From a virus, in UHGV virus genome UHGV-0267347: DNA of 27,205 nucleotides, one strand, 5' to 3'. Position 1 is the stretch's first letter. Each line of letters opens with the position of its first letter. The notes under the pieces were generated by a model. The model was not told the origin of the DNA and searched no databases. It saw only the letters and a program-made list of their open reading frames with translations. Position numbers and translations under genes: made by a program. Positions 17,589 to 20,480 of this stretch are shown here, in pieces.

Positions 17589-17686
17589 GTAAAATCAATA
17601 ACGGCTGTAAATCATTCAATACTCGCCCTATCGGAAGTTCACCAGCCAACCGCAGCACGTTCTTGCATACGACGTGGCTGCGGTTT
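17589..17686 (+). repeat. 98-bp direct repeat, copy A (hairpin-containing)
   Basis: gtaaaatcaataacggctgtaaatcattcaatactcgccctatcggaagttcaccagccaaccgcagcacgttcttgcatacgacgtggctgcggttt; about 92% identical to copy B; contains imperfect inverted repeat cagcacgt...acgtg(g)ctg. Confidence 0.8.
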
Positions 17687-17784
17687 CAACTCCCGCCAAT
17701 CATGATTGAGCGATAGTAGAATAGTAATAACAAAAATTGGTAGTTATCAGGCTCAGCAAAACACCAATCGGGTGGTGAGGATAC

Positions 17785-17808
17785 AAAAAAGGCACCCGCA
17801 GGTGCCTT
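17785..17808 (-). terminator. intrinsic terminator (minus-strand sense)
   Basis: aggcacc-cgca-ggtgcct hairpin preceded by AAAAAA on the plus strand (stem + U6 for a leftward transcript). Confidence 0.45.
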
Positions 17809-17869
17809 AAATACTACCCCTTAGCAGCGCACTAAAAATGCCCACGCCTCGTACCCGTAATCATGAGCA

Positions 17870-17974
17870 TCAAGGACTTTTTTTGATTTCCCACGCACCT
17901 TGCGGTAACGGCAGAAAACCCAACGGAACCCTTTGGGCGCCGCTTTTGAAGCAATTGATTTCAAACCCATTCAT
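17870..17974 (-). CDS. candidate small ORF (34 aa) with canonical SD
   Basis: TAAGGAGGTG then 4 nt then ATG; MNGFEINCFKSGAQRVPLGFLPLPQGAWEIKKSP; lies between the ImmA-like gene and a terminator; not in the ORF track (below its size cut-off). Confidence 0.3.
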   Translation of the reverse strand: MNGFEINCFKSGAQRVPLGFLPLPQGAWEIKKSP

Positions 17975-18093
17975 AAAACACCTCCTTACCAAGAGAGATT
18001 TTTCCCTTGAACATCTTCCCTGAAGGTGTTAATTTCAGGCTGTCTATCGAAGCTGTTCACGGTGGTGATGCCTCTTGGATTCATCACCTAAAG

Positions 18094-18129
18094 CCCCTTG
18101 CACTGGTTGGCGCCAAGCAAGGGGTTTTT
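18094..18129 (+). terminator. intrinsic terminator hairpin (strong in plus sense) abutting the ImmA-like stop codon
   Basis: ccccttgc-(15 nt loop)-gcaagggg followed by TTTTT. Confidence 0.5.
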
Positions 18130-18649
18130 ACATTTTGTCTAGCTGATAACGCGCTGCCACTAATGAAACTCCGCATGCCTCAGCAACATCCTCAGCCGTC
18201 ATACCTTTTAAAATACTGGCATGCATAGCTGGCACTAATAACTCACCACTAAAACATTTAGCTTGCCATTCACTACTCTCAAAAGGGCGGATTTTTACCC
18301 CTGGGGCAGAACGAGCAAATGCGATGTTCCTGTGCATAAGAAGATGACCCAGTTCATGCGCGGCAGTCATCCTATCTCGCCCTACCCCATTCAAAGCGCC
18401 TTCGTAAATGTCTTCGCGCAGAATCAATAAATGTTCCTGTGGGTATGTAAGACCATGCGTCTCTCCCATTTCTTTCATACCACCAATGTGGAACTCAAAA
18501 TCCGGGATCAACTGAGGCAATGCGAACTCAATTACCTCCATTACAGGGAATTTAAGCCCAGTAATACCAAATGCGCTCCGCAGAGATCTGACGATAGAAC
18601 GTATTGATTCACGATTCTGCGGAGGTACACGATAATCTTGTCCGCTCAA
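18128..18649 (-). CDS. ImmA/IrrE-family zinc metallopeptidase (COG2856-like)
   Basis: HEXXH motif in AAHELGHLLMH; 173 aa; immediately downstream of an XRE HTH gene. Confidence 0.85.
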   Translation of the reverse strand: MSGQDYRVPPQNRESIRSIVRSLRSAFGITGLKFPVMEVIEFALPQLIPDFEFHIGGMKEMGETHGLTYPQEHLLILREDIYEGALNGVGRDRMTAAHELGHLLMHRNIAFARSAPGVKIRPFESSEWQAKCFSGELLVPAMHASILKGMTAEDVAEACGVSLVAARYQLDKM

Positions 18650-18657
18650 GCCGCCTC

Positions 18658-19017
18658 CTACTGCTGTTTTCGATTCAAAATCTGTCGTAAATTACGGAAG
18701 TCTTCTTCATTTAACTCATCAAAACTACGAGCGAACGCAATTGCGACTTCACGAGCGTGGCCATTCTTACCTGACAAGCTGATCTCTACTGACTGCTGAG
18801 AGTCACGAGCTGCACTGATAAGCTTTTCTTTTTGTTTTTCATCCGCATTAAAATAGCTAATGATGCTATCAAGCACGGGCTTAGTGACCGCCCTTTTACC
18901 AGTTTCGATCGCTGAAAGATAAGACGAGGTCATGCCCATAGCCTCAGCCATGCTTTTAAGCGTAAGCCCCAAGTCTATGCGCATTTTTCTTACTGTCTTA
19001 CCAAACGGCGTTAACAT
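18658..19017 (-). CDS. XRE-family HTH transcriptional regulator
   Basis: N-terminal HTH (KMRIDLGLTLKSMAEAMGMTSSYLSAIETGKR); 119 aa; paired with the metallopeptidase gene. Confidence 0.85.
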   Translation of the reverse strand: MLTPFGKTVRKMRIDLGLTLKSMAEAMGMTSSYLSAIETGKRAVTKPVLDSIISYFNADEKQKEKLISAARDSQQSVEISLSGKNGHAREVAIAFARSFDELNEEDFRNLRQILNRKQQ

Positions 19018-19197
19018 AGTTGCTTCTCCAGTGTGTCAAAGACCTTCAGTACTTCAGGTCTCATTTTAAGTTAACACTCCACAGACATGAAATCAACAAA
19101 ATTCTGTTAATTTTTTTATCTTGCTTAGTTTATGAGTTTACATCTTATGTTGATAGAACTGTTGGTTGGTGAAGAATCATGGGGAAATGAGTCGTAA

Positions 19198-19353
19198 TCT
19201 CTTGATATTTTATGGTATGGAGATGAGCGTCAAAGCTACCATAGCGATGATTTTCCTGTTACCTACACCGCAGATAAGGATTCTGCTAATGCTTTTGTTC
19301 AGGAGACTCTGAAAGATACCTGGGAGTCTGCTGACGAGTGGTTTGTTCATTAA
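19198..19353 (+). pseudogene. 3'-terminal remnant (51 codons, no start codon) of an unidentified gene
   Basis: Open frame bounded by an upstream stop, reading [51 protein letters not shown], protein-like composition, ending 8 bp before repeat copy B. Confidence 0.35.
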
Positions 19354-19360
19354 TTAATAC

Positions 19361-19458
19361 GTAAAATCGATAACGGCTGGAAATCATTCAATACTCGCAC
19401 TATCGAAAGTTCACCAGCCAGCCACAGCACGTTCTTGCATACAACGTGCCTGCGGTTT
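19361..19458 (+). repeat. 98-bp direct repeat, copy B
   Basis: gtaaaatcgataacggctggaaatcattcaatactcgcactatcgaaagttcaccagccagccacagcacgttcttgcatacaacgtgcctgcggttt, followed by a T-run. Confidence 0.8.
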
Positions 19459-19645
19459 TTGAGACCGGTCCGATCATCAAACGAAACATAAAATTAGCTC
19501 ACACTATGAGGAAAAGTATCTTTTTTACTATGTAAATTCAAAGGATTAGCCTCATTTACCCGATAGTTTTCTCAACACTACTGGTTGTGAGCCCTTGCAA
19601 TGTTCATTAATATACGTCTCACAAATAATTCATAGATATTGCAAA

Positions 19646-20419
19646 ATGGATATTACTGAGTTTCCTTCTGGAGTAATTGAACACCTTGGCTGGTATGTAT
19701 ACCGATTGATTGATCCGAGGGACGGAAGCACCTTCTATGTAGGGAAAGGCAAAGGTAACCGCGTATTTGCCCATATGCGCGGTGAAGTGGCAGCGGCTGA
19801 TGATGACGACTTACTGAGCAACAAGCTAAAGCAAATCAGAGAAATAAGATTAGCGGGACTTGAAGTTATCCATGTCATCCATCGACATGGAATGACTGAT
19901 GAAAAGACGGCGTACGAAGTTGAAGCAGCACTTATTGATGCCTACCCTGGGTTAACGAATATCATGAATGGTGCTGGCAGCAATGAATTCGGCGCCGCGC
20001 ATGTCAAAGAGTTGATAGCAACATATCAACCCGAAACCATAACATTTCATCATAAAGCATTAATGATTTCCGTTAACAGAAGTGCAAAGGATTCAGAGCT
20101 TTATGATGCGGTTCGATTTAGCTGGCGCATTAATGTCTCTCGCGCCAGCCAAGCAGAAGTCATTCTTGCTACTGTAAGGGGGATCGTTCGAGGGGTTTTC
20201 ATTGCTGATAAATGGCTCAAATCAACACGTGAAAATTTCCCTACGATGAAATACTGGGACGAGGATCCGGACTTTGAGGCAACACAAAGTTCTCGCTATG
20301 GTTTTGAAGGTCGAGAAGCCCCACCTGAAATAGCAAATCTTTATCTTGGAAAAAAAATACCAGATGAATTAAGAAAAAAAGGAGCTATGTCCCCGGTCCG
20401 TTACTCACCTAATTTTTGA
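19646..20419 (+). CDS. GIY-YIG nuclease-domain protein with ~170-aa C-terminal domain of unknown function
   Basis: N-terminal GIY-YIG signature ([29 protein letters not shown] ... [10 protein letters not shown]); start taken at ATG 19646 (ORF track starts at TTG 19595). Confidence 0.75.
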
Positions 20420-20439
20420 GTCTTTAAGTGATAAGCATA

Positions 20440-20480
20440 AACCGCAGCACGATCTTCTTGCATACGACGTGCTACGGTTT
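20440..20480 (+). repeat. direct repeat, partial copy C (hairpin core only)
   Basis: aaccgcagcacgatcttcttgcatacgacgtgctacggttt shares the 3' hairpin core of copies A and B; lies between the GIY-YIG stop and the pin stop. Confidence 0.7.

Follow-up and report, generated by a model that had tools for sequence, protein, structure and literature searches.

We studied a short non-coding repeat in the virus genome UHGV-0267347, which we analysed as one stretch of 27,205 nucleotides (the window) from a lambda-like temperate phage. The repeat, hereafter the element, is about 100 nt long and contains a hairpin. It stands in the accessory (cargo) region of the phage as two full-length copies (A and B) and one copy that holds the hairpin alone (C) (Table 1). 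Comparing the sequences of phages and Escherichia coli genomes, we show that the element is the joint of a modular hotspot. We give a probability of roughly 60% to the reading that it has two roles, one as a terminator of transcription and the other as a recombination joint, or homology patch, for cargo exchange.

The element joins modules of an exchangeable cargo hotspot

The initial annotation described copies A and B as 98-bp repeats of about 92% identity. Counting from the sequence, we find 8 mismatches in the 98-nt core (17589-17686 versus 19361-19458; 91.8% identity), and a repeat search of the window extended the match to a 103-nt direct repeat with 91% identity and a spacing of 1772. 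A match of ~91% over 100 nt within 27 kb is far beyond chance, and the repeat is real because the same element occurs in thousands of genomes. Copy C had been noted as partial. By BLAST, it corresponds to consensus positions 60-99 at 88% identity with a 3-nt insertion (ATC) in the loop, and the same search found no copy in the window beyond A, B and C. The neighbours of the copies were also correctly named. The gene remnant in front of copy B comprises the 40 final codons for a prophage DinI-like protein. Copy C starts 20 nt past the stop codon of the GIY-YIG gene (20417-20419), and its last bases overlap the stop codon of pin (TCA, 20480-20482, + strand). As proposed before, we treat the element as non-coding, because 1-nt indels separate the family members and there is no start codon. 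Strain 203740 (L003) has a copy that matches copy A at 100% identity, and the upstream flank of copy A is also present in lambda and in strain E8.

The element is a common family that is not private to this phage and is already partly described. We found it in 196 phage records, including lambda (24162-24278, in the b region between ea31 and ea47), HK97, HK633 and many Shiga toxin (Stx) phages. It is present in 5413 of 5426 complete E. coli genomes (99.8%), at a median of 3 and a maximum of 10 places per genome. The copies are 80-100% identical across the phage records and E. coli genomes. Among the species representatives of GTDB, an exact 20-mer is essentially limited to Escherichia and Shigella. 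The 20-mer CTGGAAATCATTCAATACTC was also seen in three Pseudomonas genomes (L022, L023 and L025), where it lies inside unrelated conserved sequence and 20 nt alone match; we rejected these as copies of the element and regard them as chance or convergent matches.

In the contexts inspected, the + strand of the element constantly points to the 3′ end of the late genes, and every context is the cargo end of a prophage, save a single dinI relic. In Stx2 phages, the dinI stop codon is followed by the element and then by the convergent nleC and tail fibre genes. Lambda shows the order ea31, element, ea47, hairpin-only copy and convergent tfa. In HK97, int, the attachment (att) core and sib come first, the element stands immediately behind sib, and a convergent tfa follows; in the IntS prophages, tRNA-Arg and intS precede the element and a convergent pin or tfa follows it. 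The K-12 prophage Qin has the element between the prophage end and ynfT ydfK pinQ, and Rac has a hairpin-only copy close to the prophage end. In strain E8, the element stands between Avs2 and pinE, and the pinE stop codon overlaps it. The initial annotation had raised the concern of a dispersed chromosomal element without a link to cargo boundaries. The element is indeed dispersed, but it is prophage-borne and tied to cargo boundaries. A chromosomal repeat of the REP, BIME or ERIC type and a miniature inverted-repeat transposable element were rejected on the prophage cargo-end contexts, the constant orientation and the fact that no terminal inverted repeats were seen.

To the question whether the repeat flanks different cargo elsewhere, the flanks gave a clear answer. 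The 80-nt flanks of 169 full copies fell into 15 upstream and 24 downstream families, joined in 48 combinations, and the dinI-type upstream flank alone was joined to at least 10 different downstream flanks. A layout of full copy, + strand cargo, hairpin-only copy and late gene was found with at least four unrelated cargos, namely GIY-YIG, a 222-aa protein, lambda ea47 and a 334-aa protein. The hairpin behind the GIY-YIG gene is chimeric, having one constant left flank and three different right halves with their downstream contexts, and crossovers therefore occurred inside the hairpin.

Searching the window region 17300-21100 against E. coli genomes, we obtained an allelic series. The reference is the window allele, with A, cargo 2, B, GIY-YIG, C and pin in this order. 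Three genomes (L247) keep everything from A to C at 99.4% identity, and then tfa replaces pin with the breakpoint at 20480, the end of C. L248 keeps A, cargo 2 and B up to a breakpoint at about 19460, the end of B, and continues with ea47, the lambda hairpin-only copy and tfa; the ea47 in the GIY-YIG slot encodes a protein 99.5% identical to that of lambda. L246 and many others carry a single repeat with the left flank of A and the right flank of B, followed by GIY-YIG, C and pinE. This allele represents the site empty of cargo 2 and of one repeat copy. In L003 and L011, EcoRII/Dcm lies between A and a half-hairpin on the left of GIY-YIG, with the breakpoint inside the hairpin. In H102-H112 and L010, int is followed directly by the element, and cargo 1 is absent. 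Thus, the site occurs both empty and occupied, the breakpoints fall at the ends of the repeat, and together with the reassorting flanks these alleles support the modular, exchangeable cargo hotspot that the initial annotation suggested. Its idea of recombination scars holds in so far as the element is a junction joining modules; it does not hold for the att site of this phage, which lies elsewhere (see below).

These patterns suggest a mechanism. The same 40-100 bp are found in many lambdoid phages that are otherwise unrelated, and they lie at one map position there, with int/att on one side and the tail-fibre end on the other. A sequence shared in this way would therefore make a portable homology patch for the exchange, addition and deletion of modules. 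From the sequence comparisons, we infer homologous recombination at these shared 40-100 bp, and general or phage-encoded recombination (RecA, Red, RecET) could carry out the exchange. A single crossover at the element, between a circular phage or element genome and a resident prophage, would create a repeat-insert-repeat arrangement, and a later internal deletion would leave a short cargo block between two direct copies. The A-B block is most readily explained as such a case: a second element or phage would have come in through one crossover at the repeat and then have collapsed to the present block. At the right end of this block, the 5′-truncated dinI is still joined to its native 3′ element, and the left end has a flank type, "DN0", that is found behind the element in 25 other copies. 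The content of the B-C slot would change by double crossover, with the left exchange in the element and the right one in the hairpin or the late gene.

Hairpin structure and the terminator and small RNA readings

The element as a family has a conserved leader of ~65 nt and then a GC-rich stem-loop. Copy A is built from a TAAAAT box, a variable spacer, stem 1 (GGCTGT...CCAGCC), a conserved loop, the terminator hairpin and a TTTC tail. The imperfect hairpin reported in the initial annotation is present in all copies and is longer than first written, with CCGCAGCACG pairing to CGTG(G)CTGCGG in 10-13 pairs around a loop of 9-13 nt. We derived structure statistics from 64 distinct copies (alignment A3), counting pairs for a two-helix model. 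The terminator hairpin has 13 pairs, of which 8 are changed on both sides, and 92.6% of its cells are paired; compensated pairs went from CG to UA in 14 sequences and from AU to GC in 10. Stem 1 (GGCTGG/CCAGCC) has 7 pairs with 3 changed on both sides and 82% of cells paired. Compensation in this stem is chiefly at one pair, from GC to AU in 7 sequences, and the covariation support is modest. A variant family has a longer stem 1 (GGCTGAT/ATCAGCC and GGCTGAC/GTCAGCC). Taken as a whole, the two-helix structure has 88.8% of cells paired versus 26-56% with a slid partner, and 0 of 500 shuffles reached the observed values. RNAalifold recovered the same hairpin and did not predict stem 1. In some copies, the outer stem is kept and the inner stem and loop are replaced.

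The hairpin shows a strand polarity. At least 5 T are found in the 8 nt after the stem in 37 of the 64 copies, and at least 4 A before the stem in 1 of the 64. The G:U cells of the hairpin exceed its A:C cells (56 vs 27). Because of the T-rich tails and the G:U excess, we take the + strand as the folded and terminated strand of full copies. The stem is followed by TTTTT in copy B, by TTTCATTTAT in copy C and by TTTC alone in copy A. The whole segment folds at -27.5 kcal/mol in A and at -26.1 kcal/mol in B. Copy C folds at -21.9 kcal/mol on the + strand (z -3.45) and at -27.9 kcal/mol on the - strand (z -3.79), and hairpin-only copies of its kind have A-rich 5′ flanks and T-rich 3′ flanks. By these predictions, termination at copy C would be bidirectional, with the GIY-YIG gene (+) on one side and pin (-) on the other.

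From the covarying hairpin and its strand polarity, we infer that the element hairpin is an intrinsic transcription terminator, in support of the shared terminator module that had been offered as an alternative to recombination scars. Full copies, with their + strand polarity, would end the accessory-gene, dinI or int-side transcripts that head to the tail-fibre genes. Hairpin-only copies, which abut the last late gene (tfa or pin), would terminate both ways and insulate the convergent units.

No Rfam family reached its gathering threshold in the window. The minus-strand hairpin resembles, below threshold, the 3′ terminal hairpin of the Shigella small RNA (sRNA) family CssrB. Membership in that family (RF02799) was rejected, since the scores were 24.5, 23.2 and 15.2 bits against a gathering threshold of 76 for a 180-nt model, and the terminal hairpin alone aligned. 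A look through the literature for CssrB brought up nothing related.

Conservation begins sharply at TAAAAT, drops over the 7-nt spacer (1.08 bits versus 1.6-1.7 bits around it) and is high across stem 1 and the 33-nt loop, where it is partly an ascertainment bias from the search anchors. The sharp start and the variable spacer would fit a different reading, in which the full-length element is a structured sRNA of ~85-100 nt from the + strand. Such an RNA would either be cut from transcripts of dinI, int or cargo genes at their 3′ ends or start at a weak promoter of its own, with TAAAAT as the -10 box. Its action would be in trans via the conserved 33-nt loop, making it the prophage equivalent of Klebsiella DinR, and the cargo-junction pattern would be secondary. 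The two-helix architecture with its conserved loop, covarying terminator and U tail agrees with this, as do the GC to AU compensation in stem 1 and the excess of G:U over A:C cells on the + strand. The commonest context of the element is the 3′ untranslated region (UTR) of dinI, and sRNAs that depend on Hfq can come from the dinI 3′ end (PMC10907235).

Several results speak against an sRNA, apart from the lack of an Rfam family at threshold. We rejected a sigma-70 promoter for an independent sRNA, as a promoter scan was empty on the + strand at the element and no conserved -35 box or TG extension of the -10 was seen by eye. RNAalifold gives the terminator alone, stem 1 covaries modestly, and U tails are short in many copies. 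The 3′ flank of the K-12 chromosomal dinI has no homology to the element. A DinR-like pairing with the ribosome-binding region of ftsZ scored -29.3 versus -23.6 ± 3.8 for shuffles; this complementarity is not significant (p = 0.08), and the duplex is interrupted and implausible. In the literature searched, we found no match to the element sequence strings, no transcript at the element positions and no Hfq-bound processed RNA from the element. The known sRNAs EcsR1 and EcsR2 (PMC4350180), considered as neighbours of the K-12 copies, map elsewhere, and the anti-sRNAs of enterohaemorrhagic E. coli (EHEC) are located at the pR′ moron site and not at the element. We thus consider the sRNA reading unlikely. 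Were it true, the element would be an unrecognised structured RNA gene or 3′UTR-derived sRNA of most lambdoid prophages including lambda, with several copies in nearly every E. coli. Its 33-nt loop would be trans-acting or protein-binding, its expression possibly DNA-damage-induced via dinI or prophage transcription, and its junction role a by-product, all of which we hold as doubtful.

The combined role as terminator and homology patch, which we prefer, also meets with some difficulties. The bare TTTC after the stem of copy A and a weak T tract in ~40% of the family do not suit a strong terminator, and a simple terminator scan missed the element hairpins, whose loops are over its 8-nt limit. 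In conservation, the 65-nt leader equals or exceeds the hairpin, and stem 1 shows some compensatory change; neither is obviously explained by a terminator and homology role. Recombination at the element is read from breakpoints, and site-specific recombination by some integrase could lead to the same repeat-insert-repeat pattern.

Origin of the element and the attachment site of the phage

The element most likely originated as the 3′ untranslated flank of prophage-type dinI genes, judging from the sequences next to it. A dinI-like 3′ end is the commonest upstream neighbour, and its stop codon directly precedes 64 of the 169 copies. The remnant before copy B has 73% identity to a prophage DinI-like protein (tblastn, E 7e-19) and matches Pfam DinI at E 1e-4, just under the cutoff; the RefSeq annotation of L247 and L248 gives the same stretch as a DinI-like pseudogene. 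In K-12, the spacer between ecpE and ykgJ (MG1655; L009 4183-4495) contains a frameshifted prophage-type dinI in two fragments and then the element, both on the same strand as ecpE and ykgJ. This is the sole core-genome copy and is intact in 4953 of 5426 genomes (91%), and no site split by prophage occupancy was found among 40 sampled rows. The spacer looks like an ancient prophage relic and not like the source of the sequence. The ecp operon may today be terminated by this relic.

In another reading, all copies would be neutral relics, each a dinI 3′ flank carried along by recent recombination among close prophages and an ordinary terminator at most. The 80-100% identity of the copies, the frequent exchange of DNA among lambdoid phages and the persistence of the K-12 core-genome relic without a dinI gene would all be consistent with neutrality. 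However, both flanks were replaced many times and the element was kept, the changes in the hairpin are compensated and not random, and the element is retained in phages without any dinI (lambda, HK97 and the IntS prophages). We find the neutral explanation very unlikely.

We located the att core of this phage just 3′ of int. In lysogen chromosomes, the int-side homology stops at ~15137-15145 and the cargo-side homology begins at ~15072-15085. The host DNA adjoining the att core in lysogens is yagP′/paoD (L011), which we take to be the position of CP4-6 in K-12. The junctions thus rule out the element as the att site of this phage, and the att-like scars of the initial annotation were not borne out in this sense. 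Prophage ends inside the element were found neither for this phage nor for the IntS prophages, lambda or HK97. Lambda and HK97 have their own att cores away from the element, and the IntS prophages, which are integrated at tRNA-Arg, have the element in their interior, on the stretch from intS to the tail-fibre end.

Could the element be an integrase attachment site all the same, in another phage? Recombination by a lambdoid integrase would then take place between an attP copy and an attB copy, the latter lying in the ykgJ-ecpE spacer or in another prophage, and the three copies in the window would be attL/attR scars of serial Int-mediated insertions. The element is commonly near int, and an integration that later decayed would be expected to result in the A-cargo-B layout. 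According to Nakamura et al. (2021, PLoS Pathog, PMC8112680), a lambda-like phage is inserted in an Stx1 prophage of some EHEC strains via a 96-bp sequence, 'attB-in-PP_2', which is homologous to the ykgJ-ecpE spacer of MG1655 and is taken there as an att site acquired from the chromosome. The same study states that flanking homology reaches up to 309 bp in Stx phages carrying nleC. We find homology to the element in MG1655 and in one record of that study, LC567829. By length, shared homology and source records, attB-in-PP_2 and the element are almost certainly the same sequence. In the GenBank record of HK633, an attP annotation (NC_019719 20680-20760; L007 2509-2589) falls on the element.

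On the other side, the window phage has its att core beside int, and the window phage, HK633 and HK97 have unrelated integrases and all carry the element; the integrases beside it in other phages are likewise mutually unrelated. The HK633 annotation is probably mistaken, because prophages with the same IntS-type integrase sit at tRNA-Arg upstream of intS and have the element inside. The uninterrupted ecpE-ykgJ site in most genomes also argues against its use as attB. In the EHEC case, 23 of the 96 positions are polymorphic and an intact ompW-type att sequence lies beside the integrase of the inserted phage (PMC8112680), and these features fit a homologous, Campbell-type insertion at least as well. 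True use as an integrase site by some phage is thus conceivable and, in our view, quite unlikely; it is not applicable to this phage. We also rejected the element as an integron attC cassette, as the only tyrosine recombinase is the phage integrase with its own att core.

Gene content of the window and known systems

The window is in the excised (vegetative/circular) gene order, because the integrase gene is contiguous with the cargo region. The lysis, Q, nin-type and replication genes are on the minus strand, and the cI-like repressor and the tyrosine integrase are on the plus strand. After the integrase comes a 5.4-kb accessory region, then pin with an invertible tail-fibre segment, and beyond it, on the minus strand, the genes for a baseplate and tail of myovirus type.

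Table 1. The element, the attachment core and the genes around them in the window (int to pin).
Feature	Coordinates	Strand	Basis or remark
Tyrosine integrase (int)	13912-15075	+	Pfam Phage_integrase
att core	about 15072-15145		just 3′ of int; chromosomal homology ends
Cargo module 1 (att core to copy A)	15440-17433	-	two genes
PD-T7-1-like defence protein (module 1)	15440-16858	-	PADLOC PD-T7-1, E 2.8e-69
156-aa protein, family not assigned (module 1)	16963-17433	-	no Pfam match
Copy A, full-length element	17584-17686	+	direct-repeat search
Cargo module 2 (copies A to B)	17687-19230	-	49-aa open reading frame (ORF), ImmA/IrrE, XRE
Strong terminator (module 2)	17789-17808	-	predicted, just past the 49-aa ORF
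49-aa basic ORF (module 2)	17821-17970	-	hypothetical in RefSeq relatives
ImmA/IrrE peptidase (module 2)	18128-18649	-	Pfam/PADLOC
XRE helix-turn-helix (HTH) protein (module 2)	18658-19017	-	Pfam/PADLOC
Truncated prophage-type dinI, last 40 codons	19231-19353	+	tblastn, Pfam, RefSeq pseudogene
Copy B, full-length element right behind the dinI remnant	19356-19458	+	TTTTTGAG after hairpin
Cargo module 3 (copies B to C): LEM-3-like GIY-YIG nuclease	19646-20419	+	Pfam PF22945
Copy C, hairpin alone	20440-20481	+	A-rich 5′ flank (ATAAA), T-rich 3′ flank (TTTCATTTAT)
pin-type DNA invertase, last gene of the late (tail-fibre) region	20480-21070	-	Pfam Resolvase + HTH_7

Going by their sequences, the accessory genes are predicted anti-phage defence genes, comprising PD-T7-1, a putative CapH/CapP-like pair formed by the XRE HTH and ImmA/IrrE genes, and PD-T4-3, as which PADLOC identified the GIY-YIG gene (E 1.7e-140). 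The 49-aa ORF sits directly downstream of the ImmA/XRE pair and may be an effector under its control. In other genomes, the same region holds EcoRII/Dcm, Avs2, an AbiTii-domain protein or lambda ea47.

We made some further observations in the window. A palindrome, CAATCATGATTG, lies at 17697-17708, 11 nt past copy A. A fuller form of it, CCAATCATGATTGG, is kept in the downstream flank family that is most frequent (25 copies); it is also found behind the GIY-YIG hairpin in L050 and L100. In Rfam, the stretch 17704-17817 (+) weakly resembles STnc130, an sRNA candidate of Salmonella (29.7 bits versus a threshold of 55), and the match ends in the GC-rich hairpin that doubles as the minus-strand terminator. 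Beside pin, a 20-nt inverted repeat (21096-21115 / 23057-23076, 95% complementary) flanks the tail-fibre segment, and its arms are likely the crossover sites of an invertible host-range segment. The element hairpin was rejected as a Pin/Gin crossover site, as its arms are ~26 nt apart and not 2, and the real pin sites are at this inverted repeat. Within the O-like replication gene, four tandem 15-nt units of the CAGATTTTGACGGGT type at 8856-8930 are probably origin iterons.

For comparative work, the element is a sequence landmark for the accessory and defence hotspot of lambda-like prophages, with which the cargo slots of thousands of E. coli genomes could be located and compared automatically. 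Exchange at a shared terminator module of ~100 bp would offer a simple route for gaining, stacking and swapping defence genes. The published 96-bp intra-prophage "attB" may be a homology patch and not an integrase site. The very high conservation of the leader, lambda included, leaves room for an RNA function.

Among known systems, attB-in-PP_2 (PMC8112680) is the nearest, as its ~96 bp stand at the cargo end in lambda-like prophages and share the ykgJ-ecpE homology. It differs from the present account in the direction of acquisition, which would be the reverse, the chromosomal copy being a decayed prophage dinI with its 3′ flank. It also differs in that we find the element internal to prophages with att sites elsewhere, and with a covarying terminator structure. 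DinR is an Hfq-dependent sRNA cut from the Klebsiella dinI mRNA's 3′ end, with a pairing region that is Klebsiella-specific (PMC10907235). Like the element, it is a non-coding stretch right after the dinI stop codon, with a terminal hairpin and a conserved single-stranded part upstream. In contrast, the flank of the E. coli chromosomal dinI is unrelated to the element, and the ftsZ complementarity is not significant.

Integron arrays (attI followed by attC sites) resemble this region in having a longer site and then same-strand single-gene units, each ending in an imperfect hairpin. Here, however, an IntI-type integrase is missing, and the integrases found beside the element are of various kinds, with att sites of their own. 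The hairpins resemble ordinary terminators, and part of the cargo is on the opposite strand. Hotspots of defence genes in P2 and P4 are said to have been described by Rousset et al. in 2022, and the PD-T4 and PD-T7 systems by Vassallo et al. in 2022. Like the P2/P4 hotspots, the element-linked hotspot has a fixed map position between conserved phage genes and varying anti-phage genes (PD-T7-1, PD-T4-3, EcoRII/Dcm, Avs2 and the CapH/CapP-like pair were found). Unlike them, it belongs to lambdoid phages, extends from int/att to the tail-fibre end and is divided into parts by a repeated non-coding sequence. Juhala et al. in 2000 and Clark et al. in 2001 have reportedly treated the boundaries of morons and the conserved 'linker' or boundary sequences of mosaic lambdoid genomes. 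With these, the element shares accessory genes that have their own terminators between core modules and short conserved joints where neighbours reassort. The difference is that one ~100-bp sequence is here reused at several joints per genome and across most E. coli prophages, with a leader that is far more conserved than a terminator requires.

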